Of a stretch of DNA of 64,000 nucleotides, positions 1 to 64,000 are shown one piece after another. The notes below the pieces were generated by a model. It saw only the letters and a list, made by a program, of their open reading frames with translations. It was not told the DNA's origin and searched no databases. Origin of the DNA: Psammoneis japonica (Eukaryota); assembly GCA_008632985.1 (NCBI GenBank), contig QPGO01000232.1, forward strand, positions 1 to 64,000, written 5' to 3'. Both the position numbers and the translations under genes were made by a program. Positions within the stretch are counted from its first letter, which is position 1. The number at the start of each line of letters is the position of its first letter.

Positions 1-342
1 TCCGCGAGGGTTGCGTCGTTCATCACTGTCTTGTCGCCACCAAACTTGCAATCCACAGTCCACCACCATCAATCGGGCCTTGCAAAAAATGAATGTTTGC
101 AAAAACAGTGATGAGACAAATGTGTGTCAAGCTGACACTGTTCTTTTGCAGCACAACTCGAAACACCTGATTTCAAGGCCATGTTTTCAGCCGACGTGCA
201 AAGATTGGCAACAACACATTTGGTTCTCTTGAGGGCTGAAGAAAGAGGCTTGCTTTGTCCATGGTGCTGTGGGAATGTGAGCACAGATTAGATCTGGCCA
301 TTTGCATGCTGGACACATGGATCGAAGCGTTTGCAGAGGTCT

Positions 343-732
343 GACGCGTTCCAGCCCCAGGTGGGACTCCGTGTGACATTGGGCCCGTAGAATTCTACGT
401 GCGAGCTCCGTAGTACGAGAATTTAATTAATGGATATATTCATCTTTAACATCAAATAAACGGCCAAGTTTGTGGTGCAATTATGCCTCTTACCACTCGA
501 CGTTTTTGCAAATGCACCTGCCCTACGCGATTCTTAAGACATTATAGAATCGCGCTGTAACAAAAAATGTCAAAAGTTGTTGGACGGATCGCTCAATAAG
601 TGTACCGTAAAATGACACAAAATATCAAAAAAATCACGTAGAAATCTACGTGCGCGACATACGACGTGATTCAAAAAACTATCGATGTCACAGTTCAGCA
701 GTGCGAGGTCCCACCTAGACCTGGAACGCGTC
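343..732. mobile_element. ~390-bp MITE (family A), relatively unmutated copy
   Basis: ~25-bp TIRs GACGCGTTCCAG..AGGTGGGAC / GTCCCACCT..CTGGAACGCGTC; 4-bp TSD GTCT (339-342, 733-736); interior retains many TA. Confidence 0.9.
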
Positions 733-895
733 GTCTGGCGCATTTGTCGAGATGTGTGGACAGGTTTTTTTTAATGGTGCTCTTTCTCAAGAAGGAAAAC
801 TGGCTGATGCCAATGCTCAGCAATTGCAGACAGTGCTTCACAGACTGCCATTGCAAGAGCAGGGGCAATCTTGCTGAGGCTGCTCAAAATCACCC

Positions 896-1294
896 GACAT
901 GTTGCGTGTGCAGCTGGGAATCCGTGTGACGACACATTGGGCCCGCAGAATTCCACGTGCAAGCTCAGCAGTGAGGTTGTTGAGCAATGAATGTGTCATT
1001 GATGACCAATGGAAAAAGAGGCAATTTGCAAATGTGCAAACTTGCCCACGACAATTGAAGCACAGCACAGCTTGCTCAGCCGGGTGGGCTCTTTTCAGAT
1101 TTTGAAGAGTGCAGCACCTGGTGCCGCATTGTTGTTCCCAAAAATTTGTTCTCAAACAAAATGTCTGGGGCTTTGCAAAGTGGCAAGTTTGGAACATTTC
1201 TGTGAGAGAGCATTTGCAGAAATGCACATGTGAAGCCAACGATCACTTCTCTGCAGCCCAACACTGTGTGGGCAATCAGATCACACAGCATGTC
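896..1294. mobile_element. Degraded family A MITE
   Basis: Shares CATTGGGCCCGCAGAATTC..CGTGCAAGCTC and GAAAAAGAGGCAATTT with the other copies; 399 bp between GACATG..CATGTC ends; no matching TSD. Confidence 0.55.
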
Positions 1295-1828
1295 AGTGAG
1301 CGGGACAGACTGCCAGAAGTTGTGCTGCCAGGAGGGGGGGACTTTTCAAAAACCGAGCAAGTGGGTCATGGCTCACCCAAAAATCAATGAACCCACAGAA
1401 AGAAATGATGATGATCAAACCCCATCTTGGGTGCATCATCATTTTTCAGAAGAAGGGGACAAGAGCTGAAGGATTCCACTGCCGACTTGGAGGACACACA
1501 TCAGTGTTCAAGTTTGATTTAAGTCACCAGCTGCACCAAGGACCTGTTCCATTGAAACTGGAAAACCGATGGCTGCATTTTGGCCATGCAGCATCCTGTG
1601 CCGGGGCCCTGTCTCGACAAGTTAACCAACAGAGATGCTCCTTGACATCAAGTCGAGTGTGTCAGTTCAAAACCCTTCAGATGCCGGCATGGAGCATCTC
1701 TCCGAGGCGTCTTGCAACCAGCTGGCAAAAAGCCCGTAGAGGGCTGGGACTAACTGGCAATTGTTGAGTTGGTTGATTGATTGCAAGAACGGGGGCAACT
1801 TAAATGTAAAACATTGCAACTGAGAAAC

Positions 1829-4200
1829 TCAATGTGTGTTTGCTCCAAATAAATGTGCGGATCCTGAAGACCTGCCATTGACATCATGATGCTGCGCACC
1901 AACCCCAAGGACACTTCCATCTGCCGAGACAGACACGGAACATCCAAAATTGTCAAATTGAGATTCACCATTCAAAGGATCACCAACCTGCAGCCATTTG
2001 GTGGTGTTGGCGTCGCACTGAAAGATTCTGACTTGACCCTTGTTGCTTGTTCCATTTACGTCATTCTCTTTGCTTCCAACAGCCAAAATGTTTCCATTGC
2101 CACTCAACGACACCGAGGAACCAAACTCATCCCCTGGCTGAAATGAAAATGGAGTTTGACCATGTTGATTCCATGCGGACGAAGCACGGTCAAACTCACA
2201 AACAAGCACTTGGAAACTCAAGGGTGCTCCAACTGCGAGCACCAAACCACTGTCATCAAGAGACACTGACCCACCAAAATGACCGTTCTCGAATTGGCCT
2301 TCAATTGGATCGCCCAATGGATTCCACCTTGACGACACAGAACTGCATTCAAACAATGAAACCTGGCCAGCGTCTCTTTCGCCTGCATCATTGCGAATAG
2401 ATCCAACTCCAACTGTGGTTCCCGAACCACTTGGGGAGACCGAGAAACCAAAATCATCTCGAGCACCCTCACCTGTCAGCGTCTGTCCAAGTTGGCTCCA
2501 GAATTGCACGTCACTGTTGTGCCGAAACATTCGAACCAATCCTGAATCAACTTGATTTAAGCCGTCCGTGTCACCACACCACGTTCCGACTGCAAGAGTG
2601 TCCCCCACATCTGAGAGATCCACAGAATGCCCAAAACGACCTCCCGCTGCTTGTCCTTCAATGTCAACCCCCAGTTGAATCCAACGGTCAGTGGTGGAGT
2701 TGTGTTCAAAAACTCGAACACAACCAGGATCATCTTCGGCATCATTGTCACAGGCTCCGACCGCCAACACCGTGCCGTCGCCATTCAACAACACGGACTT
2801 GCCAAAGTTTTCCCCGGCAGCCTGCCCAACCAATTCTTGACCCACGCTCGTCCATTCTTGTGCATCTTGATTGCATTGATGGATGGACACATGTCCAGGA
2901 TTGGAAGTGAATTCTTGAGACGCTCCCACTGCCATGATGGCACCATCTCGAGACAAGGAGACGGAATCAGCAAACACATCAAATGCAGCTTTGCCATGCA
3001 GCACTTCACCTGACCTTGAAATGCAACGTTTGGTGGAAACGCAATGAAAGGAGTGGGAGAAGGAGTGCTGAGCGTGGGAGGTAGAGCAGGCGTTCGCGTT
3101 GACAGGCTTGTGACATTGCCCAGTTGCACTCCAGTCAACCCATCAAAAATGTCGTTCCCTGCGGTTAGACCCGCCTCTTGAAGGTCACTTGCGCACTTCG
3201 ATCGTAAAGCGGACGTCTTGAATGGCTCTGTCACCAACCTTTTGATCGAAACATCGGTGTCCTGAAAAGTGCATGAAATGAATTGGCTGCACGTAACGAG
3301 CAAAGACAACTCAGCGCTGTTGTCACCAATTTGCATGAGATTTGCATCTGACACCTCCAATGTAGTTTGGACATTGCGGATCTCGATGACTTGCAAAGAT
3401 CGCAACAAGCATCGGCGGCGACTGTCATAGAAACTCTCGATGCATTTCTTGGTGGCAAACGACCATAGTTCAGCATCAGCTGCTTCGAAGCCTCTGTCTA
3501 AGCCGTCCATGCTCAGGGCCAATCCGGTTGCTTCTTTGGCAGACAATTCGTCCCCACCGTCTCCGCCACCGCCACCACCCCCGAACGTCACCCCAGCTGC
3601 AATTCCCAAAACTGATGCCAAAAGCCCAACGCCCCATGTTACGAATCGCTTGCGACGGGAAATCGTTTGATTGGAGCCATCTGCAGCGCTCGACTTTGTC
3701 TCTTCAGCTTGGGTTCTGTCATTTGGTGCGGGTTCAGCGACTTGCGCCTGAGCCAGAGGAACCGACTGCCGAAGAAGTCGGTTTTCTTCTTGGAGTCGAG
3801 CCGCTTCCTCGTCTGTCACTTGAGCGACCTGAGCATGAATGAGCAAGGCGCTTTGTTGATCGCGAGTGGGAGCTGGAAGAGTGGTGTTGGATCCAGACGA
3901 CGTCTCAGACATGAGACTGACACTGTTGGCATTGTCATTTGGTCCTGCTCTCGGGACAACTCCGTCGCAATTTACGGCATGAGCACCAGCAACTGGCGTT
4001 GTTGGGTTTGGTGCAGGCTGAGCAGCATCTGCAATGTCTTCCTTTGCGTCTGGTGTAGATTCTTCCCCATGCGTTTCAACCTCATGTTTTTCCTCTTCGT
4101 CTTGTTCGTTGTTGTTGTTGTTGCTGCTGCGGTGATGGCCTCGCCTTCTATCCGTGGTGCCGTGCCACTTGGTCGGAAGCTTGGTTTTGGAACGGTTCAT
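1829..4200 (-). pseudogene. Hypermutated FG-GAP beta-propeller type II membrane protein paralog
   Basis: Colinear with 7174-9731 (AGAxAV motif, TM helix, FGxSVSLS repeats); frameshift near 3010; Tyr replaced by Cys/His (LLVTCSQFISCTF vs LLVTYTQSFAYTF; PGHV vs PGYV; IFQCD vs IFQYD). Confidence 0.85.
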
Positions 4201-4822
4201 GACTGAGAGATGATGACAAAACAGCCCGTGATGCAAAAATGTGGAGTCAAGAGTCAATGAACGCAGCTTTTGGACTCTTTTGGGACTCCTGTAAGAATCA
4301 GGCGTGACTGAGAGATCACGAACGGGAACGCGACAAGTGTCATGCTTCATCGCGCGAGCCGTTGCTGCAATTCATCAACGCCGGCATTTCATGATGAGGG
4401 TTGACACGCCCCAAAACGATTTGTGGTGAAAGCTGCAAAACGGGGCTGTGCTGTTACTGCTCCTTCTCGTCGGTTGTTTTAGTCATGGTGCTGAATCGTG
4501 CTGATGAGTGTGTGTTGTGGAGGGAGTTTTCACGCATTTCGAAAATTCCGCCAAACGATCTTTACGCGCTTCGTGCGCGACAAAACTTCAACATCTGGCC
4601 GTCAGTCGTCTTCCCGCGCTTTTTTGTGTTGGATGGTTTCGCGCGGGCGGCGCGCGTCATCGCTCATCGCTCATCCATCTCACAAAACCAAAACATCATC
4701 ATCCATCAGCCATCATCACTTTGCGCTTCATTATACTCTGCTTGTTATACCCCTCCTTCTATTATCACACCACACTTATTGCAATCCTCATATAATACAA
4801 GGCCGTCTTTATTGCATGTCGA

Positions 4823-6654
4823 ATGAACAAGTTTCGAGCATCACGTGGTTGTTGGATACTTTTACTTTTTGTATTATTGAATTGCCGATTGATTGAATCA
4901 TCCTCTTTACCCATCATCAACAACAACAAGCATCACTCGACAAAAAGAAGAGCAACATCATTTCTAACGAGAAATCAACTACTAAAGAACAAGAAAACTA
5001 CAACCATGACGACAACTGACTTGCGTGGTGGTGGTGGTGAACAACAGCCGAGTAGTAGTAGTCGTTTGGTTCGTATTCGACAGACGGTGTTTCCGATTTA
5101 TGGGAAACAAGAAGTGATTAAATTTCTCTTGATTGGCTCTATAAAGTTTTTCATAATCATGGCCTTGACTCTGACACGAGATACCAAGGATACCTTGGTC
5201 GTGACGCAATGTGGAGCCGAAGCCATTGCGTTTTTAAAGGTGAGAGGCGTACATGCTGATTGAAGCATGATATGAAGCATACACACGGCATGCTGGTATG
5301 TTTTGCTTATTCTCAATCGCTCACCAGGTATATGCTACCTTTTGTGTCAATATATAGATTTACGGAGTTCTTCCTGCTGCTACTGCCTTTATTGCACTCT
5401 ACTCGAAAATGGCATCCGTCATGAGCAAGCCGACGCTCTTTTACTCGACATGTATTCCTTTCTTTCTCTTTTTCTTACTGTTTGATGTATGGATTTATCC
5501 CAATTCCAGCCTACTGCACCCATCCTTAGAAACGGTCCAATCATGGTTGCCCCATTCAGAAGGAGCATGGAGTGTCTTGGCCAAAATCTGTAGTCATTGG
5601 ACGTATTGTTTGTTTTATGTAGTGGCAGAAATCTACTCGTCCGTCTCGGTCGGACTCTTGTTTTGGCAATTTGCCAATGACGTGGTGCCCGTCGAACAAG
5701 CGAAACGGTTTTATCCACTCTTTGCACAAATGAGTGGATTGGCACCCGTCGTGGCGGGACAATATGTGGTGCGGTATGCCAGTCAATCGAAATCGTTTCA
5801 AGTGAGTTTGCACCGACTCACGGCCGCTGTGAGTTTTGCGGGAATCATGATTTGTGTCTTTTATCACGCGAGTCGAATGTATATAAAACAACAAGAACAA
5901 GAAGAACAAGCTTTGTTATCGAATACTAACAAAAAGACGACATCAGCATCCAAATCAAAGAAACCAAAAATGAGCATGGGGGAATCGGCAAAGTTTTTGG
6001 CATCCTCGCAGTATCTGAGACTGATTGCCGCATTGGTGTTGGGATACGGATTGTCTATTAATTTTACAGAAATCATGTGGAAATCACTCGTCAAGAAACA
6101 ATATCCCGACCCACTTGATTATCAACGATTCATGGGTAACTTTTCGTCGGCCGTGGGACTGTCCACGTGTATTGTCATTTTCTTTGGTGTGCACGTGATT
6201 CGAATCTTGGGATGGAGGGTGGGTGCCATGGCGACACCGGGAATCATGGCTGTACTTGCATTACCCTTCTTTGCTTGTATCTTGTTGGGTCTCGATGTAG
6301 CCCCACGCGTCTATCGACCGCGGTTGTCTTTGGAACGGTCCAATCCTTACTGAGCAAAACTTCCAATATGCACTCTTTGATCCCACAACACAAGTGGCCT
6401 GCATTCCACTCGACAAGGAATCCAAAGTCAAGGGCAAGCTGCAATTGATGTATTGGGATCTCGGATTGGCAAGAGCGGTGGCTCGCTCATTCAACAGGGG
6501 TTGGTCATGGTGTTTGGAAACATTATTAATGCTGCACCCGTGGTTGCCGTAATTTTACTATACCGTCTTGTTGGGGTGGATGGGTGCGGCTCATCGATTG
6601 AGTAGTTTGTTTCATGCCAAGACGGAAATGAACAAGGCTGAAAAGTATCAGTAA
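4823..6654 (+). CDS. NTT: Nucleotide transporter (TLC/NTT ATP/ADP translocase family), probably plastid-targeted
   Basis: Motifs LTRDTKDTLVVT, GAEAIAFLK|IYGVLP, LFWQFAND, AKRFYPLF, KGKxAIDVLGSRIGKSGG; GT-AG intron 5240-5357; N-terminal signal peptide; a few 1-bp frameshifts after ~6300, probably assembly errors. Confidence 0.9.
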
Positions 6655-6789
6655 GACTACAGTGTGGAACAAAAGTACCTTATTCATTATTAAAAGGGAA
6701 TACCGCATTTTGAGGTGCCAATGTTATTCTGAGGAATGAGCTGCGTCTCTCTGCACGACGGTCTCGTATAGGCTAGCACATGATGTTTA

Positions 6790-6910
6790 CCATTTTCTGT
6801 GTCATCCCAATACGCTTCCACAGCAAGAATATCTCCGGCCTCCGATGGCGACATGGAAGAACCAAATCGATAACAAAACTCTCTCCAAAAATGTTGCTGC
6901 CGAGTTTGTT
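6790..6910 (-). pseudogene. Short FG-GAP paralog remnant, TA-retaining
   Basis: Translates YRFGSSMSPSEAGDILAVEAYWDDTENG, matching LFGSSVSLSDAGDILAVGAHWDNAENG of the neighbouring gene. Confidence 0.7.
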
Positions 6911-7173
6911 CCAACGATGCGAAGCAGGGAGCTGTATTTACAATCACTTTGTTCGTTATACCGGCATTTGGTTCGCCATACTGCCCACCTTTTAACGATA
7001 CAGCCCAACCAATTCGTGGACACTACGACTCCACGGTTGGTTAGCGGGATTGCATCGATAGTAACAATATAACATGGCCGATCGGATCAAAATCGTCCCT
7101 TGCTGCTATTTGCGATACAAAACTACATCTGCAGCATTATTGACACCAATGCATGAAATACAAAAATACAGTT

Positions 7174-9731
7174 CTAATTGTTGTTTACCGTAAATGCATA
7201 TGCGGATCCGGACTTGTCGCCATTGACGTCAGCATTCCGTGCACCAACTCCAACGAAGCTTCCGTCGGCCGACAAGGACACGGAATGTCCAACCAATCAC
7301 GTTCAGCCTCGCCATTTAAAGCATCTCCAACTTGCTTCCATTCGTCTGCATTGACGTCATACTGAAAGATTCGAACTTGACCCGCTCGATACATTCCATT
7401 GACGTCATGCAAACCACTTCCGACCGCCAAGACGTTTCCATTGCCACTCAATGACACTGAGTAACCAAACTCATCATCAGACTGTTGTGTCAAGAGAGTT
7501 TGGCCACGTGGATTCCATGTCAAAGTCGAGCGGTCGTACGAATGAACCAAAACCTTCTCGTCGTTGGTTCCAGGTGCATCCGCGGCCACGATCAAACCGC
7601 TGTCGTCAAGAGAAACAGAATATCCAAATTTACCATATTCGACTTGGCCATTGATTGGGTCACCCAACAGATCCCATCTTGACAAGGCAGAATTGTATTC
7701 GTACACTGACACTTGACCAGCATTGTTTCCACCCGAATCATTTCTATATGCTCCAACGCCAACAATGGTTCCCTGCGCATTCAACGAAACAGAAATACCA
7801 AAACGATCATCAGCGGCTTGGCCAATGAGGGTTTCTCCGAGTTGGTTCCAGGACGAAGAGCCGCGGTCGTATTGAAACAATTGCACCGATCCAGAATCAG
7901 AGCCATTTTCCGCGTTGTCCCAATGCGCTCCCACGGCAAGAATGTCTCCAGCGTCTGAGAGCGACACGGAAGAACCAAATAAATCACCAGCGTCTTGTCC
8001 AAGAATGTCGCTGCCGCGTTGGACCCAATGATCCGATGCCGAGTTGTATTCAAACACCCGAACGTGACCGGCATTCGATCCGCCACTGTCATTCCATGGA
8101 GCTCCAATGGCAAGAATCGTGCCATCGCCATTTAACGAAACAGACTCTGCATAATCGTCGCCGCCAGCTTGTCCAGTCAATTCTTGGCCAATTTGTATCC
8201 ATTGTTGGGTGCTTGGATTGTATCGATTGACCTCAACGTAGCCGGGATTGGAAGAAGATTGTTGTTGATCTGCTCCAATCGCCATAACACTTCCATCACG
8301 AGACAAGGAGACGGAATCGCCAAAATTGTCATCTCCCGCTTTGCCGTGCAAGATTTGACCGACGGGACTCCACGTCCCATTTAGCGGCAAACCACCACCA
8401 CTGGTAGAATTGGGTGTTGGAGCTTGAGTTGTGGGACGTGGAGTAGGATTGAGCGTTGGCGGAGGCGTTGGCGGAAAACTAGATGGAGTGGTGGGGGCTG
8501 TTGTGGAAGGTTGGGTAGGTCTTGAAGCGGTAGGAGCCACAGTAGGTGGAGGAGTCGGGTTGACCGTGGGAGATGGCGTTGGCTCTTTTGTGGAAGACGG
8601 AGTCGGCGTGGGTGTCGGAGCTAATGTCGATGGAGGCAACGTCGGATCTTGTGTCGGTGAGTCTGTCGGAGATGGAGAGGAAGGATTTGGTGTATTTGAT
8701 TCCATGCTAACGTCAGTCAAGTTGTCGAAAACGTCCTCGCCTTGAGCCATACCCGCGTCCTGTAGGCCGCCTGCATATGCCATTCTTCTGGCAGACGTTC
8801 TGAATGGTTCACTCACCATGTGATCAATAGAAACGTCCTTGTCTTCGAATGTATACGCGAATGATTGGGTGTACGTAACAAGTAAAGAGGGACGAGTGCC
8901 ATTGTTGCCACCTCTTACGACGTTTGTGTCGGTTACACCCAGTTCAGTTTTGACATTGTAGATGTTGGCGGTCGCTAAAGAGCGATGCAAGCGGCGTCGG
9001 CGACTGCTGTAAAAGTCCTCAACGTATTCCTTGGTCACGGCAGCCCATAAATCTGAGTCGTTCGCATCAAACACTGCGTCCAAACCAATCAAACTCATGA
9101 CCAATCCGGTAGCTTGTTTGATCGATTGCTCGCCGCTTGCTCCGCCATCGTCCCAGGGCTTCACTCCTACAATAACACCGACAATCGCAGCAATAACTAA
9201 AACAACAACTCCTCCTCCGATGATGTAACGTTGGCAACGTCTCTTCTTTTCCCCATCAATGGGATCGTCACCTTTCGTGTTGATCGACGCAGTTGGGTCG
9301 GGGCGGTGTTCGGCATCATCAGAAGCCATGAGGACAGGTTCCGCAACCTGGGCTTGAGCCAAAGGAACGGATCGGCGAAGAAGAATGTTTTCTTCTTGGA
9401 GTCGAGCCACTTCTTCATCCGTCACTTGAGCAAGCTGAGCTTGGGCAAGTAAATCGCTTGGATTGCGAGTGCTGGGCGCTGGAACAGAGGGATCAACACT
9501 CTCGGGCTCCGACATGAGTGTGACACTGTCAGGATTCCTTCCAGCTCTCGGTACCACGCCATCACGATTGACTGCATATGCTCCAGCTGCAGGAGCTTCT
9601 TCCGTGTCTTGATTTACCTCTTGATCTTCTTGAACCGTCTCTTGTTTCTCCTCCACCACACTTCTACTGTTCCCACGGCTTTCATAGGTGTCATCCCAAA
9701 TCGTGGTCGGCGGCTTGTTGGAACGGTCCAT
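7174..9731 (-). CDS. Type II membrane protein: acidic N-terminal region, TM helix, P/T-rich stalk, C-terminal FG-GAP beta-propeller
   Basis: 848-aa ORF; ~7 FGxSVSLSxxGxxLAVGA repeats; TM IIGGGVVVLVIAAIVGVIVGV; restoring one T near 7292 gives C-terminus ..GSAYAFTVNNN* (TAG 7174-7176). Confidence 0.85.

Positions 9732-13316: not shown

Positions 13317-13319
<3 letters not shown>

Positions 13320-13363
<44 letters not shown>
13320..13363. repeat. (AGC)n microsatellite
   Basis: ~14-15 pure AGC units; the intact paralog has only AGCAGCAGCAGTAGT. Confidence 0.9.
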
Positions 13364-13366
<3 letters not shown>

Positions 13367-16240: not shown

Positions 16241-16289
16241 AAGCATTTGTGATTTCGATGCTGACAATGACTCTTGTTGCCCCTCTCTT

Positions 16290-16307
16290 CATTGTTGTGC
16301 TGTTGTT

Positions 16308-16338
<31 letters not shown>

Positions 16339-16352
16339 TTGTTGTTGTTGTT
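16290..16352. repeat. (TGT)n microsatellite
   Basis: Long GTT/GCT run. Confidence 0.85.
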
Positions 16353-52645: not shown

Positions 52646-54650
52646 ATGACACAAGTCATTGTCCCTTTCTTGTCGTTTCAGATGAAGAAAATTGTGGCGC
52701 GTGAAATCCTCTCCCGATTTCCCAACTTCTCTCAACCTTTCAAGATCTGTCCGGATGCGAGTGACTGTCAACTTGGTGCAGTGATTGCTCAAGATTTTGA
52801 TGATGGCGGATGGCCAATTGCACCCTGCAGTCGAAAATTGTCCCTGGCGCAACAAAACTGCATGACAATGGAAAAAGAGCTGCTGTCGCTTGTCGAAACG
52901 ACCAAAAATTTCAAAAGCATCCTTTTTGGCCATCGATGCTGCCTTTTTGCCGATCACAAGAACCTCACATTTGACAGATTCAAGTCAGAGCGCGTCAAAC
53001 GCTGGCGTTTGCTTCTCGAGGAATGCGATTGCTCTTTCGAGTGTTTGCCAGGCCATGAGAATGTTGTGGCTGATTTTTTGAGTTGCCATCCCATCGTCCA
53101 AGTTGACACGGGTTCCAGTCCCAGGCGGGACTTTTTGTGACATTTGGCCCGTAGAATTTTACGTGCGAGCTCGGCATTGCGAGAATTTAATTGGTGGATG
53201 TTTTCATCTTCAACATCAAATGAACGACCAAGTTTGTGGCACAATTGTGACCATTGCCGCTTGACGTTTTCGGCAATCCGCCTGCCCTGCGCCATTCTTA
53301 AGACATTTGCAAATGGCGCAGAAGAAAAAATGTCAAAACTTGTTGGACGGATCGCTCAATGAGTGCACCACAAAATGACACAAAAATTTCAGAAAAGTCA
53401 CGTACCTTTCTACATGCGCGACACACGGTGCGATCCAAAAAACTGTCGATGTCACAGTTCAGCAGCACGAGGTCCCACCTGGAGCTGGAGCGCGTCTTGA
53501 TCAAAGCAACTGCGAGGAAATGACTTCATTGGAAATTGATCCTTCGACATTCCCCGTCACTTTCGACATTGTCGCCAACCATCAGAAAAAAGATTCTGCT
53601 CTCCAGCAGTGACTCGACAAGTCCGAATCCTGCTCGGCCAAATCATTCAACAAAAAACAGATGATCCTTTGCAAGGACAAGATCGTCCTTCCTCCAACAC
53701 TTTTTCCTGCAGTCCTGCATTGGTGTCATGAAACTCTCTGCCATCCTGGTGCCAACCGCACCTGTCAAACCTTGGCTTCACATTTTTACATCTGCGACAT
53801 GCAGACGAAAGTCCGCACTTTTGTCCGTCAGTGCCGTGTGTGTTCCAAATCCAAGCACACTGCAGCAAACTGCGGTGAATTGCCTCTCCCGGATGCTGTC
53901 TACAAGCCTTGGCAAGCAACTCAAGTCAATCTTTTTGGTCCCTGGACATGCACCGACAAGAATGGCATCAATCGCAAAATCAGAGCCGTTTTGATTGTTG
54001 ACATTGCAACCCGTTGGATTGAACTCGCGAGCTGCAAGTCCAAAACGTCTGAAGACATTTCACTTGTCGTTGATCGCAAGTGGTTTTGTCGCAATGGCTC
54101 CGAACTCACTTCCAAGTTTGCAGACCTTCTCTGCAGTTGTGGCGTTAAACCAAAGCCTGCAACGATCAAGAATCCTCAAGCCAATGCGTTCGTTGAACGC
54201 ACTCATCAAGTTGTCGCCGATTCTCTCCGTGCGATGGATCTCCCTTCTCGCGATTGTGATGAAGACACGATTCATGGAATTTTGCAATCCATTGCATGGG
54301 CCTTGCGCAGTGCCTGCCATGCTGCCCTCATGTCGTCTCCCGGACAAATTGTCTTCGGTTGAGACATGGTCATTTCTGCTGCTCATCTTGCGAACTGGAA
54401 AATGATCAATGCCCGTCGCAAGCGCGATGTCCTGCGCAACAATCTCCGCAAAAAAGCAAAACGTCTTGCCTGCAACTACAACATCGGTGATCAAGTCTTT
54501 GTCATGACCAAAGACATCCAACGCAAACTCAACACCAAAGATGGTCCCTTCCGCATCGCACGTGTCCACACCAATGGAACCGTCACCATCCCGCGCTCGC
54601 CTCGCATCACCGAATGCATCAACATCTGCCGTCTTCACCCTGTCTTCTAA
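52646..54650 (+). mobile_element. Ty3/Gypsy pol relic (RNase H, integrase)
   Basis: DASDCQLGAVI, SRKL..AQQNC..MEKELL, DHKNL; HHCC finger; NPQANAFVER; GPF module; RNase H precedes integrase; PPT GGGGAAGCAAG at 54661-54671. Confidence 0.92.
53107..53496. mobile_element. Family A MITE nested in the Gypsy pol
   Basis: TIRs; TSD TTGA; same subfamily as 343-732. Confidence 0.9.
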
Positions 54651-54671
54651 TGTCTCAATTGGGGAAGCAAG

Positions 54672-55377
54672 TGCCAAGTGTCACGGTCATCTACATTCAT
54701 TCGTGTGTTCATTCGTGGATGTCAGCCTGATGCCAAAAGTGTCAAAAGGATGTCAACGATGACACTTTCTAGAAACCTCTTCTCTTTTCTCGACACATCT
54801 CGATGCCTCTCGAAAGATTGTTTCTTTGCATTTCTGCATGGTTTCTCAGCATTAATTCTGTGAGATTTTGGAGCAGCCAAATCTCTTTCATTTCTTTTCA
54901 CAATGTTGGCAACAGTCAACATTGCAACGCTGTTTTACACTGTTGCTTGGCACCACTTGGCATGCCGACGTTGGGCTGCACACACTGTGCCACACACAAG
55001 TCATGTCCAGAGACGTCGTTTTTGCATGGCACTCTCTCTCTCTTGACGACACACGGTCGAATCAGTGAGCATGTGGCCAAGACCAACAAAAAAAACGTTC
55101 CATCATTCACACCGCTGCGGTCTGACGACTCTCCCACTTGCTCTACACACAGAGACTCCAAACCACAAATCCCCTCTAGAATTGCACTCTCCACTTGACC
55201 AACATTCGTTTGTCGTTTCCACCCAAAATCATCATTCGAATTTGCTCCAACGCCAACATAGACCGGTTCCCTGCCCTCTTTGTGTAAGTAAACGCAAATG
55301 CCAACACATCAATCTCCACTCAATGTGCATCTTCACCAATCAGAGACACTCTGTTTGAGCGACAGTTGGTTCCAACA
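54672..55377 (+). repeat. Probable 3' LTR of the Gypsy element
   Basis: Starts TG immediately after the PPT; right end (..CCAACA) inferred from where TA content recovers. Confidence 0.5.
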
Positions 55378-56478
55378 TGTTGTTATGAGGAGCCACAATA
55401 GTCGAATGGAAACTTTTTTTTAAGAAGTCTTCTCCTCGAACAAGACAATCAAAGGCTATGCCTGCTAGTGTCGTTTTCCAATACACTCGCTCGCTCCACT
55501 GTGAGTCCACAGAGTGATGAGACACTCCAACAATTGCATTCTCTCTGTGTGCATGTTGTTGTTGTTTATTTGCATCCATAGCAAATCTCGTGCATTGACA
55601 ATTTGGTTGCGTCAATGTTTATTCTGCACTCCAATTTGGTCGGGTTGTCATTGTGTTGTTCTAGTCATTGAACACCGTCGTCATGGTGAACGGCGGCTCG
55701 CTCTACTCTGATGTCTGATGATTTGTGCGATCCAGATCACATGATATTTTATTTCAATTTCTGAATAAAAACAATACGATTCATTCTGACTGCGCACTGT
55801 CCGTCGCTCGTCACTCGATAGCGATCGTCTGTTACTGCTAGTTTTGCGTCGCTCGTCGTGCCTAGCACTTTATTTGTACTTGTACTCTAGCTAGAGTAGC
55901 TACTAGCTAGTAGAGGGAGCCTCTAAGCAAGAGGGCACATTAATGCAAATGCTTCTAGCTAGGCCGCCATGTCGACTAAAAGAAGATGCATTTGGGGTTG
56001 ACCAGGGCAGAAGGATATCTCATTGCCACAGAGTACGTGTTTGGTGGGTAATACTCTCTCTAGAAGTAGAGAGAATCAGAATGTAGCCTGTTTCTTAATG
56101 AAAAAGTTGAATCTGCAAAATGCTGGCTCGCTCCACTCTAGAGTTAGATTGTGTTGGACGTATTTGTACTACAGGACAACACCACTGTTTTGTTTCGTTT
56201 GAAAAACCAAAACGAGAGAAAAACCAGAAGAGTTGACGAGGAGTCTTGCAAGCGCATTCGTAAGCGTAGTGTTTCGATTTTTGTCAAACGCGGCAATGAA
56301 ACTTCAACAAGAAAGCATTTCCAAAAGGTTCATAATACCATGGGAACTACAATACTGACTTTTTTTTAACCTGTTTCACGCCGTTCCTTTTCGATTCTTC
56401 ACACCACCACAACAAACAACTACTACTAAAATACCACAATCGTCTCGAAACTCATACCAACTCGTTCGCACCTTTTTT

Positions 56479-57687
56479 CTACTTTTTCATTGGCTTTTGA
56501 CAAACAATCTGATAACTCGTCGTGGCGATACGCAACTCATCGGCCGAACAAAAGGCATCGGCATCCTCCTTGAGACGCAACAACATGCGTTTGAAACGTT
56601 GCGGTAAAAAGTACTTGGCAAAGGTACGAATCCAAGCGTACGTGTTGCGTTCGGAATTAATGAGATTCAACTGATGGCCATTGATGCTGGCGTCGTCACT
56701 GAGCAAAACCTTGAAACCGGCCTTTTTCATGGCGTTTTCAAATTCGGAATAATGAACCGTGTCGACGGCTCCAATAAAGGGCTGTGTTTTAATAACGTGG
56801 TATGAATGTGTGAGTTACAGAATTGATTTTAGACAATAAAAAAATACAACTCAATTCATGCGAAACAATGCAATACACAACAAGCATTATACATACCATG
56901 GTCCGCTTGACGTAATCCACATGCTCGGAATTCTTGGGATCGTAATTATCCAAGAGCATCCAATCCAACATGGAAAACTTGGCACCCGGCTTGAGGACAC
57001 GGTAAATCTCCCGAAACAACTCCTCCTTGTCTTTGGAATAGGTAAAGGCTTGGATTTCATAGGCGGCATCCATGGACTCATCGTCAAAGGGAAGTGGTTC
57101 GTTGAGACTGCGAACTTGAAAATCCGTTTGATTCGCAAGACGGATGCGTTTGCTGTAACGCTTGGCATTGGCCACTTGAGAGGGATCAATGTTGATACCC
57201 GACACGTGCGTACCGGTCGCCTTGGCCACGTGCATGGCAACACGGCCACGGCCACAACCAATATCCATAACCTTCTTTTCGGTAGTTCATGCTTGGATCC
57301 GTCCGTGCGAGCGTCGAGACCAATGTCTTGCATCATTTTGAGTTCGTACAACTCTTGATTACGAAGAATCCCCTCCTTTTCATCACGCAACGGAGGAATG
57401 TACATTTTCTCCACATTGCCCAAGGCGCACAAGTGATTAATCACGTGGTAGTAATCGACGATGTGGTCTTCGGATTTGCCATTCTTGTTGGACCAATCGC
57501 CATCAAAGAGAATGTACGACCCCATGTAGGCGTCAATATCCTTTTCACTCAGCGTGGCGAGCGAATAGAGAGCGTGGACCTTGGTACCAATGCGGTAAAA
57601 GTCAATCGGAAGCACCGCCGTGACTGTGTCAAAGGTCGTCACCAAGACATCGACAAGGCCGCCGTAGGTCTTCTTGACGAGGCTCAT
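56479..57687 (-). CDS. SAM-dependent methyltransferase, sterol C24-methyltransferase-like
   Basis: MDIGCGRGRVA, GINID, LPFDDESMDAAY, EIYRVLKPG; intron 56782-56896; one A missing near 57278. Confidence 0.8.
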
Positions 57688-59517
57688 TGCGGTTTATGGC
57701 GTGGTTGCTTTGCTGTATTGTTGGAGCTCTTTTGTAAAGCACTGCTGCAGTAACCTTTGGGCGATTAACTCTTTGGAGTTAATTGAAGGTTGCTCTTGGA
57801 GCGAGAAGAACGTGAAAAGTGTTGCGTGAACGTGAAAAGTGTTGCGTGGCTTTTCGAGTGGTCCAAAAAATGAGGAGACGAATGCACACGTATCTTTCTA
57901 CGTAGAATTCTACAGAACGTGGCGGGAAAGGATATTCCTTGAATAATAATATATAAGAATACGAATGTTCTATAGAACGCAAAATTTTCGAAAGATCCAA
58001 GATCCTTCGTACACAGCTGTAGAAATCTACACAGAAGATCTTTTGGCTGACTCACCGTTGAATTTTTATCCAGAGCTACAGCAATGAATGTTAAGAATGA
58101 AACACAGACAGACACAAGCGGTCAGTCGGGCACAGCAGAGCGCACACCATGATGTCACACTCTCACGCCACACAGCGAGAACGCAACCTCCAAGAGGCAG
58201 AGCAAAAATGGACTCACTTCCATTGTTCTGACATGATGTTACAAGTTTGAGTGAAATGAGGCCCATCCGAACCCTCGAGTCAGTGCTGACACGTCAACTG
58301 CGCAACAACAACGCCTTTTGCTCATCACTCACCCCCGTTTCTCGGACACAAACACACACCAGAATTGTGCACCGGCAGATTCCACCTGCGGCACAGTACG
58401 ACAGAGAAAACGAGAACCCTACTTTCCTGCCATTTTTTCTTTACGAGAACTGGTCCATGGAATCCCATTGGTCAAGTCTTGCACGGCAAAGGTGCAAGTG
58501 ATTCGTTTGGCCAAGCCGTCTCCTTGTCTCGCAGTGGCAGCGTCATGGCTGTTGGAGCGAATCAAGAATGGTCGTCTTCCAAGCTTGGCCATGTTGTTGT
58601 GCAGCAATGCAATTCAAGCACCCAACAATGGGAAAAAATTGGGCAAGAATTGATTGGACAAGCCGCCAGTGACAAATTTGGACAATCGGTTTCGTCAAAC
58701 GGCGACGGCACCATTCTACAGCTGTTGGAGCCGATGAGAATGACAGTGGAGGAATGAGTGCCGGTCACGTTAGTGTGTTTGAATGCAACTCTGTAAAGAA
58801 TTGTTGGGTTCAACTTGGCAGCGACATTCTTGGACAAGACGCTGGTGATCGATTTGGTTGTTCCGTGTCGCTCTCGGACGCGGGTGACATTCTTGCTGTG
58901 GGAGCTCATTTGGATGACACGGAAAATGGCTTGAATTCTCGATCGGTTCGGTTGCATCAATGCGACCGTGGCTCCTCATCCTGGAGTCAACTTGGACAAA
59001 CGCTCATTGGACAAGCCGTCAATGATTGTTTTGGGTTTTCCGTTTCCTTGAATGCACCGGGAACCATTGTGGGCGTTGGAGCACATTGGAATGATTTGGG
59101 TGGAAGGGATGCAGGTGAAATTTTGGTGTGTGAATGCAACACCACATCCTCAAGGTGGGATCTGTTGGGCAGTCCTGTCAATGGCCAAGTCGTTCATGGT
59201 TGGTTTGGACATTCTGTTTCTCTTGATGACAGCGGTTTGATCGTGGCCGCGGGTGCTCCTCGAGATGACGAGAGGGTTTTGGCACATTCGTGCGACCGCT
59301 CGATGTTGCAATGGAGCCAATGTGGCAAAACCTTTTTGACACAACAGCCTGGTGATGGTTTTGGTTGGTCAGTGTCGTTGAGTGGCAATGGAGACGTCTT
59401 GGCAGTCGGAAGTCGTTGGCATGACATCAGTGGGTTGGTCCATGTGGGTCAAGTTCGAATCTTTCAGCATGACCGCAATGCAGATGAATGGAAGCATGTT
59501 GGAAATCCTTTGAATGG

Positions 59518-62500
59518 TGTCAGAAATTGAAGGCAAATGGCAAGAATTCAAACAACAACTCCTTGCTGCTGTCTAAACAGCAGATGAGTCTCCGCTCAGA
59601 GACCGTTGCAGGAGCCGAAAGACGTGCAAGTCGGCACAATCGGGCCACTGTTGTCATTCTTGTGAGCCTTGTGGCTCGAAAGCAAACTACATCGCACACG
59701 AACGCGCGGAACTAAAGCACACAAAACTGTGCACAGCAAACTAAACAGCGCACGATGTTTTGCGCGCACCCAAATCCTGTTCAAATCCTGTCACTCCCCA
59801 GTTTGCTTGAGGAGTCACAGAAACAGATTCGACTTCGGATTGACCAAAGAACTTTGGAGTCAAAGCACCAAAACATGAGGAGACAAGAAAGGATCAAGAT
59901 CCAAGAGCAACGTTGCATTCTCCAAGTGGGTCATCTTGAGATGAGCTGCATCTCCCCAGTTGCAGATGCCGTTGTGCTTTTCAAAGCTCAAGGCACACTT
60001 GGGATCTTGTGGGATTCCACATCCACACTTGCAATGGAAGGAGCAAAGCTTGGTCTGGTTGACAATGTTGAACGGCAGGGCAACATTGCAGGACAATGCA
60101 AACAAGTTGACATTGCCTTCACTTCCTGAGCGAAGGTCATAAAGACTGATGTCCGTCTGTTGGTTCTTGGGACAGTTGCCACACTGGGCTGCTGCTAGAA
60201 AAACAGAGCAGTGCTCGTGCAGGGTGGCATGGCGTTTGCACGACTCGGGGAACAGAGCAAGCATGAGTTCAAAGGCACAAGCGGTGGTCTTGTGTTCCAC
60301 CAATCCGATTGCAAGCTCAGCTGCATCTCCTGAGAGACTGATCCAATTGGAGAAACGAGTCTCAAGGTGCAAGCCTTCGGGGATCGGATTGGAGCAAGAC
60401 ATCTTGTGGTGCAAGGCTGCAGATGTCTGATTGGGGCAACCAGTCCCATGCTGCAAGACTTCTGGGATCCAAAAGGACTTGCCAGTCTTGTGACACGAGT
60501 CTTCGGGGATCCAATCAGGAGGCCAAGTCTTGAGGTGCGAGACTTGGGGGATCCAATCAGGAGGCCGAGTCTCGTGGCACAAGACTTGAGGGATCCAATC
60601 CGGAGGCCGAGTCTTGAGGTGTGAGATGTGGAGGATCCAATTGGGAGGCCCGGTCTTGAGGCACGAGACGTGGAGAGTCCAGTTGGGAGGCCTGGTCTCA
60701 AGGCACGAGACTTGGGGCATCCGATCAGGAGGCCCAGTCTCGATGTACGACACTTGGGGCATCCAATCAGGAGGCCCAGTCTCAAGGCACGAGACTTGAG
60801 GCATCCAATCAGGAGGCCCAGTCTCGAGGTGCGAGACTTGGGACATCCAATCAGGAGACCTGGTCTCGAGGTACGAGACTTGGGGCATCCAATCAGGAGG
60901 CCCAGTCTCGAGGTACGAGACTTGGGGGATCCAACCAGGAGGCCCAGTCTCAAGGCACGAGACTTGAGGCATCCAATCAGGAGGCCTGGTCTCGAGGTAC
61001 GAGACTTGAGGCATCCAATCAGGAGGCCTGGTCTCGAGGTGCGAGACTTGGAGCATCCAGTCAGGAGGCCTGGTCTCAAGGCACGAGACTTGAGGCATCC
61101 AATCAGGAGGCCCAGTCTCGAGGTACGAGACTTGAGGCATCCAATCAGGAGGCCTGGTCTCAAGGTACGAGACTTGGAGCATCCGGTCAGGAGGCCTGGT
61201 CTCAAGGCACGAGACTTGAGGCATCCAATCAGGAGGCCCAGTCTCGAGGCACGAGACTTGAGGCATCCAATCAGGAGGCCTGGTCTCGAGGTACGAGACT
61301 TGGAGCATCCGGTCAGGAGGCCTGGTCTCATGGTGCAATGCTTGGAGGATCCGAAGACAACAAAGCTGCTTGGATGTCCTGAACTCCCCATCTGATGAAC
61401 CGGTTGAACTGTTGTGAACAGATTCAATGACGGGAAAAGGAGGCTCCCCATCAGGAGATGCAAGAAGCAAGTTGTCATCTCCATCACTTCCCAAACGAAG
61501 ACTGTGAAGGGTGACAGCGGTTGACACGTGGAGGTTGGCAGCAAGTGGTTTGCGGGGTGCAAAGGCTGTAGCTTTGGAAGCCATGGGTGGAGTGTCCCAA
61601 CTGGTCTCGAAGTGCGGGTCTGTGCAAGGGCTGCAATCCTGCACTGGGCCGAGGTTGCTTGCAGGCGGGTTGGTCAAGACATGCGGGGCGCAACTGACAC
61701 CACTTCTAGGGGACACCTGAGTGGTGGCACAGTGCAAGGCTGGCGTCAAAATGGCACTGGGTTCACCTGGTTTGGATGGCAAGGGACTCGGCACAGGTGC
61801 GGAGGGTGCTGCGCCAGTGGCTAGAGAGGTCAAGCAGTCCGGACCAAGGCGGCAGTTGCGAAATTCCTTGGGTGTGAGCAACTGGGGTTCATTGGTCACA
61901 TCATCACCATTGCAAACTTTGACAAAGTAGAAGCTGATCAAAGCTGCTAGGAGGTTTCTGTGGGTCCATGGCAAAGGCACTACATTGGCGCCGTCTCTGC
62001 AAGTGAGGGCGTCAATTTGGGTGGGTGAGAACGTGAACAATTCCTCGCATGATTCAATCCCGTTGATGGACAGGGCAGAACGAAGAGGGCTGTCATTGTC
62101 TTGATTGAGCACAGTGCCTAGAATGCATTTGAAGCTTTCGGTTTGTTGCTGTCGCGTGAGAACCATGACGGAGGACGGTGCAGCAGAAACAAAAGACAAG
62201 ATCCAATCTAGAGCGCGATCTTGACTCGGAGTTTTGACTTGGAACTTGGCTTGAAAAAGACTTGACTTGAGCTAGACTTGACTTGAAATCTTGGACTGTC
62301 TTAAAATCAGAAGTTGCCGGGTTGTGCCATCCCGTTCGTTGTCAAGTGCCAAACTTCCTGTCCGGTCCGTAGAGTTGTGCCGGCACGTCCGAACCCGTGC
62401 AGCTGGTGGCGCTTTGGGTTGCTTACGAGCGGAGCAGCGGGTTGTAAACCCCTGCAGGTGAGCTGACCAGAGGTGGACAAGACCCCCGAACCGTTCTTAT

Positions 62501-63398
62501 TTTATGTCGGTTGGATTTCCCGATCAGGCTGGCCAGTTGACGCAGGCGTCAGGCACTGTGGACGAACGAACAAACGCGGGAAAAACACCCTCGCCCCAAC
62601 GCAGGCTGCAATCACGGCTGCTTGCTCTCACAGTCGTCCTCGTGGACCTGGTGGAACTGCAGAGCACCAGTGGTCCGGGGTGGATCAGGTGCAATGGACT
62701 CGGTGTGCTTGTAGAGTGGTGGCAAAACCGCAATCCGAAGAGTGGGTGCAAGTTCTTGGCCGTGAAGACATGCACACATGCATGTCTTCAGCGACGAAGG
62801 TCCTTGAACATGTGGGGCTCTTGACTGTTAACCGATGAATGGGCACATCAAGGGATGAGGATCAAGGGTGGACTTGGACATGACCGTTGAATGTGTGTCT
62901 TCAGCGATCAAAGGCAGTGTGATCAATCCAGATGTCCAGCGACAAGGAGACTTGACGGTGACGTTAAATTCCTGCCGATGCCTGGTGTTGAACGCGCGTA
63001 GACTTGCCGATGCATGTAGAACACACACGGAGGTCCACGCAGAATTGAGGTGGCGTCGTCGGTAAATCAACGACAACGATGGCGGTTGCTCAATGGGTTG
63101 ACAATGAGCAAGACTGTCAATCTGTCAGAAATTGAAGGCAAATGGCAAGAATTCAAACAATGACTCCTTGCTGCTGTCTAAATGGCAGATGAGTCTCCGC
63201 TCAGAGACCGTTGCAGGAGCCGAAAGACGTGTGAGTCGGCATGATCGGGCTGCTGTTGTTGTTCTTGTGAGCCTTGTGGCTCGAAAGCAAACTGCATCGC
63301 GCGCGAACGTGCGGAACTAAAGCACACAAAACTGTGCGCGGCAAACTGGACAGTGCGCGATGTTTCGCGCGCACCTGAATCCTGTTCAAATCCTGTCA
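59518..63398 (-). mobile_element. Non-autonomous LTR retrotransposon with Copia (diatom CoDi-like) gag N-terminus
   Basis: 276-bp TG..CA LTRs (59518-59793, 63123-63398); 5-bp TSD AATGG; minus-strand PPT at 59794; ORF MVLTRQ..ILGTVL.Q..DSPLR.AL..; no RT or integrase. Confidence 0.88.
60490..61329 (-). repeat. 42-bp in-frame tandem repeat, ~20 units (ETRPPDWMPQVSYL)
   Basis: Unit CTCGAGGTACGAGACTTGAGGCATCCAATCAGGAGGCCTGGT; degenerate units continue to ~60360. Confidence 0.95.
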
Positions 63399-64000
63399 AA
63401 TGGCGAGAGGCTGAAGACAATGGTTTTGGATGTTCTGTGTCCTTGTCGTCCGATGGAAGCATCGTTGGAGTTGGTGCACGGGGGGCTGACGTCAATGGCG
63501 ACAAGTCTGGATCCGTGCATGCATTCACGGCAAACAACAACCAGAGGTGCATTTTGCATTTCATCCATTTGCATTGCTTGCGTCATTGCAATGTTGCATT
63601 TCAAACGACTGATGGTGTCGCAAGTGCTGCAGCAACAAAATGAAACCGTTGATTTGCAATGAGCAGGTCAGTCAGCTCTCCAGTCCTTTTGGTGGCATGC
63701 TGCAAGACATTTGCTGCATCAGTCCATCACATGAGGAGAGACGCAGCTCGGTGTCTAGAGTTGCATTGGCACCTGCCGCTGGCTAGAAATGCTGCTTGCA
63801 GCTGACAAGATTCCTGAGCTTTTGGCATTGCAGGTCGAAGTGACAATTTGTTTGTAGACGTGGCATTCGTTCTAAGAAAACCAATGCTTTTGTCCAAACT
63901 GTTGTCTTGCAGATGCTTTTCAGCCTTGTTCATTTCTGTCTTGGCATGAAACAACCTGCTCAATCAAAAATCCGCGCCCATCCACCCCAACAAAATGGCA

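Follow-up and report, generated by a model that had tools for sequence, protein, structure and literature searches.

Domain-wide TpA to TpG/CpA hypermutation of repeats and gene duplicates in a 64-kb window of the diatom Psammoneis japonica

Introduction

Fungal repeat-induced point mutation (RIP) turns C:G into T:A pairs, mainly CpA into TpA, and thereby raises TpA; it is pre-meiotic and depends on a cytosine-methyltransferase-like enzyme (RID/DIM-2). A process with the reverse outcome is on record in a preprint for the chlorarachniophyte Bigelowiella natans, where integrated viral DNA undergoes de novo hypermutation of TpA to TpG/CpA (Mettrop et al., bioRxiv 10.64898/2026.01.13.699255, April 2026). 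In the mutation-accumulation lines of that study, 231 of 302 nuclear point mutations lay in two integrated viral regions and 230 of these 231 were A>G or T>C, every one at a TpA; such mutations arose at about 6e-7 per site per generation, 1000-fold the background, and were seen in 11 of 15 lines (bioRxiv 10.64898/2026.01.13.699255). The preprint also gives 324 TpA-poor coding sequences, among which reverse transcriptase and DDE endonuclease domains are overrepresented, as well as 124 clusters of windows poor in TpA and rich in CpA+TpG; its authors suggest an ADAT2-like enzyme that deaminates adenine in DNA, as a defence (bioRxiv 10.64898/2026.01.13.699255).

Here we analyse the first 64,000 nucleotides of contig QPGO01000232.1 of Psammoneis japonica (assembly GCA_008632985.1, forward strand; hereafter the window), together with one public read run and public protein and contig libraries. 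TpA is nearly absent from five blocks of this stretch and frequent in the four gene islands that alternate with them. The recognisable contents of the blocks are a Gypsy fragment, a family resembling miniature inverted-repeat transposable elements (MITEs), tandem repeats and copies of FG-GAP and bestrophin genes. We read the pattern, at a probability of roughly 0.78, as a domain-targeted TpA hypermutation acting on DNA, of the same kind as the B. natans process and found in a second lineage. Diatoms and B. natans both belong to the SAR supergroup (stramenopiles, alveolates and Rhizaria).

The likeness to B. natans lies in A>G/T>C changes that are confined to TpA and give TpG or CpA according to strand, in discrete silenced or foreign regions within an otherwise ordinary genome, and in the resulting footprint of TpA down and CpA+TpG up. 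The targets differ: the best-studied ones in B. natans are an insert of a nucleocytoplasmic large DNA virus (NCLDV) and one of a virophage, still TA-rich or only mildly depleted (Rho TpA 0.45, with the virophage region above the genome mean), against transposons, MITEs, tandem repeats and host-gene duplicates near saturation in the diatom (observed/expected ratio, o/e, 0.03-0.1). The diatom pattern also includes a preference for RTAY (R, purine; Y, pyrimidine) and a co-located CpG decay, while the B. natans main text mentions neither flanking context nor CpG nor diatoms, although its supplements may contain an analysis of context. A preliminary description of the window, made from its letters alone, held that no characterised system of this kind was known; the B. 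natans report has made that statement outdated. Our full-text literature search, in diatoms and elsewhere, returned no other TpA-removing process aimed at repeats besides this preprint.

TpA-poor blocks and gene islands

Dinucleotide o/e values were computed in 1-kb intervals, and raw counts were also taken in 250-bp bins. Over the whole window, TA occurs 1044 times (o/e 0.25), and the o/e is 1.48 for CA, 1.51 for TG and 0.70 for CG. Pooled, the five depleted blocks (43,204 bp) hold 237 TA at an o/e of 0.09, with CG at 0.55 and TG and CA each at 1.62, whereas the four gene islands (19,004 bp) hold 763 TA at 0.57 and CG at 1.04, which bears out the earlier claim that TpA is nearly absent from repeats and duplicates and plentiful in gene islands. 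Most 1-kb intervals of 1-4, 12-31, 40-45, 48-55 and 59-64 kb have a TA o/e of 0.00-0.12, and those at 5-11, 32-39, 46-47 and 55-58 kb one of 0.44-0.72. Several intervals contain just 0-2 TA and there TG+CA o/e is 1.7-2.0, reaching 2.0 where TA o/e is 0.0-0.05. The depletion is real and far beyond chance: the by-eye figure of about 50 TA in 11.4-24.4 kb in the preliminary description becomes 49 on exact counting, against 849 expected from base composition.

The blocks are A (751-4300; 24 TA, 339 TG, 340 CA), B (11300-31500; 88 TA, 2073 TG, 2092 CA), C (39250-45250; 43 TA, 547 TG, 609 CA), D (47500-55200; 36 TA, 824 TG, 880 CA) and E (58250-64000; 46 TA, 552 TG, 502 CA), the counts being those of the + strand, on which TG and CA are thus nearly symmetric in every block. 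Between them lie island 1 (4400-11250, TA o/e 0.44-0.72), island 2 (31750-39150, 0.45-0.67), island 3 (45500-47450, 0.34-0.56) and island 4 (55300-58100, 0.52-0.60). Borders are sharp at the resolution of the 250-bp bins, with a drop from 8 to 1 TA near 11.25, 39.25 and 47.5 kb. All four pyrimidine-purine (YpR) dinucleotides together have a summed o/e near 4 across the 1-kb intervals, a near-constancy that transitions within YpR steps would give.

CpG is depleted as well (o/e 0.17-0.5), a loss not noted in the preliminary description, though in only part of this DNA. Blocks A, where TA o/e is 0.05-0.18, and E have near-normal CpG, block B has lost it over most of its length, and block C is mostly normal up to 43.5 kb and depleted at 44-45 kb; the segments that are TA-poor with CpG near normal are 2-4.7, 18.2-19, 40-43.5, 52.5-55 and 58-64 kb.

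Direction of the change

Several genes of the islands have degraded copies in the blocks, and the alignments give the direction of change. The largest, a segmental copy at 13099-15841 (+) in block B, is collinear with 31954-34193 of island 2 (73-76% identity by blastn) and covers the open reading frame (ORF) 31916-33133 (+) and part of a bestrophin-like gene recognised by Pfam (33551-34984, -). When the intact segment (31.9-34.3 kb) is aligned with the copy (13.05-15.9 kb), its 76 TA are found as 36 CA, 22 TG and 18 other dinucleotides, none being kept, and its 121 CG as 45 TG and 43 CA, with 15 kept; transversions affect about 7% of sites and transition divergence is about 16%. The intact FG-GAP gene of island 1 (7185-9776, -; Pfam FG-GAP_2, 1e-27) has two degraded copies. 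One in block A, at about 1800-4400, has FG-GAP_2 matches in ORFs 1829-3142 and 2785-4371, and in the alignment over 1.8-4.4 kb 61 TA of the gene give 17 CA and 8 TG, with 3 kept. For the other, in block E (58458-59517, -; aligned over 58.4-59.6 kb), 27 TA give 8 CA and 7 TG, with none kept. The share of intact-gene TA that became TG or CA is therefore 58/76 for bestrophin and 15/27 and 25/61 for the block E and block A copies of FG-GAP.

Coding consequences agree with the claim of the preliminary description that conserved tyrosines (Tyr) had turned into cysteine (Cys) or histidine (His) in Gypsy RNase H, bestrophin and FG-GAP copies. Over 44 aligned Tyr codons of ORF 31916, bestrophin and FG-GAP, the copies show 19 Cys (TGY), 10 His (CAY), 1 Tyr and 14 other residues. 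The TAG stop of ORF 31916-33133 is CAG in the degraded copy, as had been noticed for TAG stops. The Gypsy RNase H ORF of block D (52574-53137, +; Pfam RT_RNaseH, 8.6e-21) has 0 Tyr and 10 Cys in a matched stretch of 145 residues. Its homologues (144 usable among the 150 matches listed) have a median of 7 Tyr and a median of 1 Cys, and the Cys of the ORF occupy columns in which they carry Tyr (94%, 70%, 56%, 42% and 38%).

The coding constraint on the intact copies and the conservation of the tyrosines in the Gypsy family both point to TA as the ancestral state. These comparisons show that the blocks underwent TpA to TpG/CpA, that is A:T to G:C, hypermutation at the DNA level. Such a region-targeted A:T to G:C mutator at TpA had been proposed from the sequence, and the proposal is upheld: paralogues and Gypsy Tyr columns give the direction, young duplicates the timing and contigs assembled from reads the reality of the sequence.

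RIP and the process seen here both degrade repeats in place after duplication by transitions only, leave dinucleotide skews with sharp borders and destroy ORFs; in the diatom, however, it is TpA that falls and CpA and TpG that rise, and an enzyme of the RIP type cannot explain the window since the changes are at A:T pairs. The DNMT4 enzymes of diatoms, which may be relatives of the RIP factor RID, occur in 8 pennate and 23 centric species out of 60 (PMC9998398).

Decay of 5-methylcytosine (5mC) resembles what happened to CpG in the same blocks, where 88 of the 121 CG of the bestrophin segment ended as TG or CA and CG o/e reaches its low values. Transposons are the methylated compartment in a model diatom (PMC9998398). 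This decay cannot remove TpA, and the loss of TpA is more complete and is seen at CpG o/e of 0.7-1.1; most simply, 5mC-driven decay explains the CpG component only.

Timing, rate and targeting

Young duplicates within the blocks show when TA was lost. Where two copies of an ancestral TA (or CG) changed differently, one to TG and one to CA, two adjacent differences form a CA<->TG double, and the number of such doubles was tested against random placement of the same number of transitions (2000 trials); a site was counted as TA/CG-derived if either copy has TA or CG there, or if the two copies have CA and TG. The youngest pair, 59518-59793 and 63123-63398 in block E, differs at 25 of 276 sites, by 25 transitions and no transversion. 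TA/CG-derived sites account for 24 of the 25 differences, and there are 7 doubles against 0.39 expected. In block B a unit of about 640 bp is present as a tandem triplet (29638-31580, +; 92-93% identical), whose copies differ pairwise at 43-50 positions, 28-37 of them at TA/CG-derived YR sites, and have 6-10 doubles per pair against 0.36-0.52 expected. Two adjoining MITE-like copies (16997-17396 and 17506-17902, +) have 12 doubles against 1.23. Taken together, the five young pairs have 6, 10, 7, 7 and 12 doubles, with random means of 0.36-1.23 and random maxima of 4-6. Independent TG and CA outcomes mean that each copy lost its TA after the duplication. For tandem pair b/c, a calculation from the counts of shared and singly changed CpG sites predicts only about 1 double from CpG, so that most doubles would be former TA and each unit would have had about 20 TA, a normal density, when it was duplicated.

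Differences outside TA/CG-derived sites are few: 1 in 276 bp for the youngest pair and 10-16 in about 620-660 bp for the tandem copies. From these counts we estimate, with wide error, that TpA may be lost tens to hundreds of times faster per base than the background and CpG about ten- to sixty-fold faster. In the old bestrophin copy just 2 TA stand beside 523 TG+CA sites; as its transition divergence should otherwise have recreated dozens of TA, the process seems persistent.

The MITE-like family adds an internal series of ages. The element measures about 400 bp, ends in terminal inverted repeats (TIRs) and is represented in the window by five copies of two subfamilies. An unmutated copy (343-732, +), assigned to block A, has 26 TA and 28 CG, and the bins covering 251-750 contain 27 TA where the adjoining bins contain 0-1. 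Mutated copies lie in block B, at 13741-14140 (+; 7 TA) and as the adjoining pair just described (1 TA each), and a further copy at 53108-53496 (6 TA) sits between the RNase H and integrase of the Gypsy fragment. Between the copies at 343-732 and 53108-53496, 15 of 26 TA became TG or CA, 6 were kept and 5 were otherwise changed. The whole fits an age series that begins with the unmutated copy, passes through blocks that lost TA with CpG intact and ends with blocks that lost both.

Summed contig depth over the MITE-like family is 17,000-74,000, compared with about 30 at unique flanks, and the 31-mer bin at 13741-14140 reaches 74,245; the family is probably present in very many copies.

As to targeting, the preliminary description had called the process repeat-associated. 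That stands insofar as transposons, MITEs, tandem repeats and gene duplicates are all hit, and does not insofar as degraded single-copy stretches are depleted as well and the intact partner of every gene duplicate is unaffected. The combination makes the targeting look based on domains or elements, as opposed to the homology pairing of RIP. Both members of a duplicated pair are mutated in RIP, whereas here TA is at its normal level in the intact genes (FG-GAP, ORF 31916 and bestrophin); tandem and MITE copies were each mutated, and selection could hide mutated alleles of the intact genes.

These results bear on the explanation that needs no dedicated mutator, in which heterochromatin is replicated or repaired with a bias and drifts slowly to a TG/CA equilibrium. 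The bias could come from a T:G-mismatch glycosylase, from very short patch (VSP)-like repair adapted to damage at 5mC, or from a polymerase that is error-prone and prefers WA (W, A or T); in Escherichia coli, VSP repair is held responsible for a depletion of CTAG. Such a drift would account for TpA and CpG falling in the same domains and both ending as TG/CA, and for the depletion of entire domains, some stretches of which are single-copy by their 31-mers. It sits badly with the youngest pair, which lost almost all of its TA while acquiring one other difference, and the estimated rate exceeds what a bias on rare mismatches supplies. TA loss moreover outruns CpG loss and is present where CpG is normal, and the B. 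natans process is episodic, being seen in 11 of the 15 lines, and exceeds the background about 1000-fold (bioRxiv 10.64898/2026.01.13.699255). We consider this explanation improbable, if the best of the alternatives.

Sequence context of the surviving TA

The context of TA loss was examined in a 22.1-kb depleted core as retained TA density relative to the islands. The core has 74 surviving TA, made up of TTAA (19), CTAA/TTAG (18), GTAA/TTAC (13), CTAC/GTAG (10), ATAA/TTAT (6), CTAG (5) and one each of GTAC, ATAG/CTAT and ATAC/GTAT; ATAT is represented by 0, against 57 in the islands. Retained density is 0-1.6% in RTAY contexts (ATAT 0, ATAC 0.006, GTAC 0.016) and 0.012 in ATAG, rises through ATAA (4.5%), CTAC (8%) and GTAA (10.6%), and is highest for CTAG (0.165), CTAA (0.316) and TTAA (0.398). 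RTAY was thus erased first, and YTAR last and in part spared. In a fit, log retention is near-additive over the two flanks, with weights for the 3' base of about 3.0 for T, 2.1 for C, 0.9 for G and 0.5 for A, and this additivity fits two independent strand events at 5'-TAY-3' (equivalent to 5'-RTA-3'). There is no more than a hint that the change falls on the base pair adjoining the strong flank, for instance from the MITE pair, where a reading of the alignment gives 6 TAY to TGY against 2 TAY to CAY.

A preference for a neighbouring base is shared with enzymes that inactivate invading elements by clustered transitions, APOBEC3 (G>A) and ADAR (A>G), and ADAR-type enzymes prefer a 5' U (bioRxiv 10.64898/2026.01.13.699255). 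These act on complementary DNA (cDNA) or double-stranded RNA and leave strand-specific marks, whereas in the window both strands of resident chromosomal DNA were hit, DNA-transposon-like and tandem sequence included. An A-to-I editing of repeat transcripts by an ADAR- or ADAT-like enzyme, with subsequent reverse transcription into DNA, would have that 5' U preference, typical of adenosine deaminases, and would suit the Gypsy element among the targets. The strands are, however, equally affected (TG about equals CA in all blocks), both His and Cys replace Tyr, and several targets have no cDNA stage, namely the TIR-bearing MITE-like element, the tandem duplicates, whose copies diverged in situ, and the 2.7-kb segmental copy, which spans two oppositely oriented genes and the spacer between them. 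RNA editing is thus very unlikely as the source.

Support from reads and related records

The missing dinucleotides are both palindromic YpR steps, the usual targets of symmetric modification, and the platforms of the assembly and of the read run are unrecorded; an error of sequencing, base calling or polishing at modified bases in silenced DNA could thus be suspected. Contigs built by Logan from the reads of a public run (run X1) bear on this. The run holds 84% of the words sampled from 9-19 kb, and its contigs match 10931-13309, 14115-16285, 16364-17050 and 17838-18285 without any difference or gap, at a depth of 30-37; exact contigs of at least 2 kb at this depth argue for accurate reads. 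Within these stretches the depleted part amounts to 5,316 bp with 14 TA where 353 are expected, so that a consensus artefact, the refutation foreseen in the preliminary description, is contradicted by 5.3 kb of depleted sequence reproduced without a difference. Two other runs (X2 and X3) have little or no coverage of the depleted part. The many transversions of the degraded copies, which for bestrophin affect about 7% of sites, mark them as old, true paralogues, TA-rich and TA-poor copies of one MITE family coexist in the same assembly, and Tyr-free relatives occur in short contigs of other NCBI/ENA records. The chance that an artefact produced the pattern is slight, even smaller than for RNA editing.

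The relatives just mentioned came from the protein search with the RNase H ORF, in which 7 of the 144 usable matches have at most one Tyr in the matched region, and one more such protein was found later. At least seven Tyr-poor Gypsy pol fragments have 0-0.5% Tyr (P0157, P0175, P0199, P0218, P0246, P0400 and P0143), and P0179 has 1.1%; the fragments are 162-699 aa long, have raised Cys and His and derive from NCBI and ENA records with contigs of 2.3-30 kb. For P0218 (699 aa, 0 Tyr), the 32 Tyr of its closest relative correspond to 16 His, 12 Cys, 3 Phe and 1 Val. A TA-erasing footprint would therefore appear to be present outside this assembly, although the Tyr-poor fragments may come from the same species. 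A metagenome scan with aligned Tyr-free pol fragments gave 78 loci with related Gypsy elements (from the best 80 of 528 relatives); the source of the Tyr-free proteins was not among them, and TA-poor copies are thus not common within those best 80.

Equally hard to sustain is selection, in which elements avoid UpA and CpG as RNA viruses and retroelements do or descend from TA-free master copies: low UpA and CpG with high UpG/CpA is the classical composition of RNA viruses (CpG/UpA biases and their selection are treated in PMC3829696 and PMC8420353) and high-copy families are TA-poor, but dead copies of host genes changed relative to their intact partners, TG and CA outcomes are independent within a family, an unmutated copy exists and the related Gypsy elements of the 78 metagenome loci have ordinary TA, which leaves this explanation as little chance as an artefact.

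Unique contigs of run X1 in the depleted block (10931-18285) have a depth of 30-37, about half the 50-67 of island contigs (5001-10900). The depleted block may be hemizygous, or its haplotypes too diverged to share 31-mers.

Weighing of the hypermutation reading

Several points weigh against TpA hypermutation of the B. natans kind. Everything here is deduced from fixed differences in one 64-kb window and without de novo mutation, where such mutations were measured in B. natans (bioRxiv 10.64898/2026.01.13.699255). The viral regions of B. natans have no excess of G:C to A:T changes, so that the CpG decay of the diatom may be unrelated. The unmutated MITE copy at 343-732 lies within a depleted block, which makes location in a domain insufficient by itself; the process would then be episodic or would need a mark that this copy lacks. 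As to the pair that changes relative to the strong flank, the counts of 32 TAY to TGY and 20 TAY to CAY do not differ significantly (P = 0.13). The 78 metagenome contigs with related Gypsy elements (from the best 80 of 528 relatives) have ordinary TA, at o/e 0.39-1.08, so that a TA-poor composition is not a family trait of these elements and the process is not general among relatives. Lastly, run X1 is probably from the assembly's own sample and its platform is unrecorded, and its agreement excludes errors of consensus or polishing, not a bias at the level of sequencing chemistry.

Proposed mechanism

Under the hypermutation reading, TpA is converted to TpG or CpA with both strands equally hit, in situ after insertion or duplication and independently in each copy, and neighbouring genes and intact duplicate partners are left alone. 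Relative to the local background, TpA is removed several times faster than CpG, and a slower CpG to TpG/CpA decay in the same domains is most simply 5mC deamination. The net effect is the destruction of all Tyr codons and of TAA and TAG stops, with repeat copies driven apart.

As for the enzyme, we favour a TadA/ADAT2-like or other deaminase with a preference for a 5' T, which would turn adenine in DNA into hypoxanthine; this is the simplest chemistry for A to G with a 5' T requirement, although we hold it tentatively, at a little under even odds. Modification of thymine with mispairing, or a bias of repair or polymerase, is a possible alternative chemistry. The targets and the effect suggest a role in genome defence, of the RIP type with opposite chemistry. 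A far-reaching version may be put forward as speculation that we think unlikely as a whole: diatoms would have an adenine deaminase triggered by duplication or silencing, editing at 5'-TAY-3' together with, or as the same machinery as, that of CpG loss, and forming with Bigelowiella an ancient DNA-editing immunity, shared across SAR or repeatedly acquired, and distinct from RIP and APOBEC/ADAR.

Other features of the window

Island 1 carries a TLC ATP/ADP transporter (4796-6353, +; Pfam TLC, 2.2e-81) besides the FG-GAP gene. Its best matches are diatom proteins at 70-77% identity, and the named ones are mostly from raphid pennates (Amphora, Seminavis, Nitzschia, Cylindrotheca and Fistulifera); judged by these matches the window is diatom nuclear DNA. 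Island 2 contains, next to ORF 31916-33133 and the bestrophin-like gene, a gene for a MraW/RsmH-like (ribosomal RNA N4-methylcytosine, m4C) methyltransferase (35333-36690, -), split over three ORFs, presumably by introns; it has no evident connection to TpA loss. The ORF at 45734-46945 (+) of island 3 encodes a prolyl-4-hydroxylase-like 2-oxoglutarate (2OG)-Fe(II) oxygenase (PF13640, E 0.0013; PDB 7zsc, a prolyl 4-hydroxylase, 2.8e-05). It had been considered as a thymine or 5mC oxidase, a candidacy dropped in view of this resemblance. Island 4 has a class I methyltransferase gene (56792-57693, -; Pfam Methyltransf_11, 4.6e-19).

Block B consists of nested repeats along with the degraded gene duplicate. 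A high-copy repeat without a recognised domain (20342-25000) has a TA o/e of 0.04-0.10 and a summed contig depth of 4,100-18,200, and its ORFs gave no Pfam match. At 25998-26531 lies a palindromic repeat of 534 bp that matches its own reverse complement at 68%, and the sub-region around it retains somewhat more TA (15 in 26-27 kb). Two microsatellites, (GCA)15 at 13320-13365 and (TTG)22 at 16292-16357, are places where contigs of run X1 break. In block C no ORF has a domain recognised by Pfam.

Block D has an FG-GAP fragment (47241-48030, -), an unclassified CpG-poor repeat at 48-52.5 kb and the Gypsy fragment, whose integrase ORF (53613-54359, +; Pfam Integrase_H2C2, 3.5e-12) follows the RNase H; Pfam found no further Gypsy domain in 56 short + strand ORFs of 48-55.3 kb. 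Block E includes a tandem array with a 42-bp unit (60495-61329; 19.9 copies, 85% match), the units of which vary mainly by CG/CA/TG alternatives at two columns. A column with 8 TG and 7 CA was tried as a former TA and set aside, as one unit has CG and the ancestor is ambiguous.

No viral domain turned up in the Pfam searches of the depleted blocks, but these searches left most of that DNA without any match. Long ORFs without a domain match, up to 803 aa, occur on both strands in block E (59863-62271, -; 60198-61673, -; 60625-61392, +), and many overlapping long ORFs occur likewise in 11-31 kb. They are most likely spurious, because TAA and TAG are gone and only TGA stops a frame.

Significance

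Natural A:T to G:C editing of chromosomal DNA is so far the subject of the one report that we found, the 2026 chlorarachniophyte preprint. The window adds a second lineage, the diatoms, an ecologically dominant and experimentally tractable group. New here are a saturated signature on ordinary transposons and gene duplicates, the RTAY flank preference and the internal age series. For annotation there is a warning, since TA-free DNA gives long spurious ORFs on both strands while true elements that have become Tyr-less escape domain searches. The footprint opens the way to dating and classifying repeats in such genomes, and to a search for the enzyme by comparative genomics of diatoms with and without it. 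The finding is of interest for genome defence, mutation spectra and the genomics of diatoms, and should the enzyme prove to deaminate adenine in DNA, engineered adenine base editors would have their counterpart in nature.

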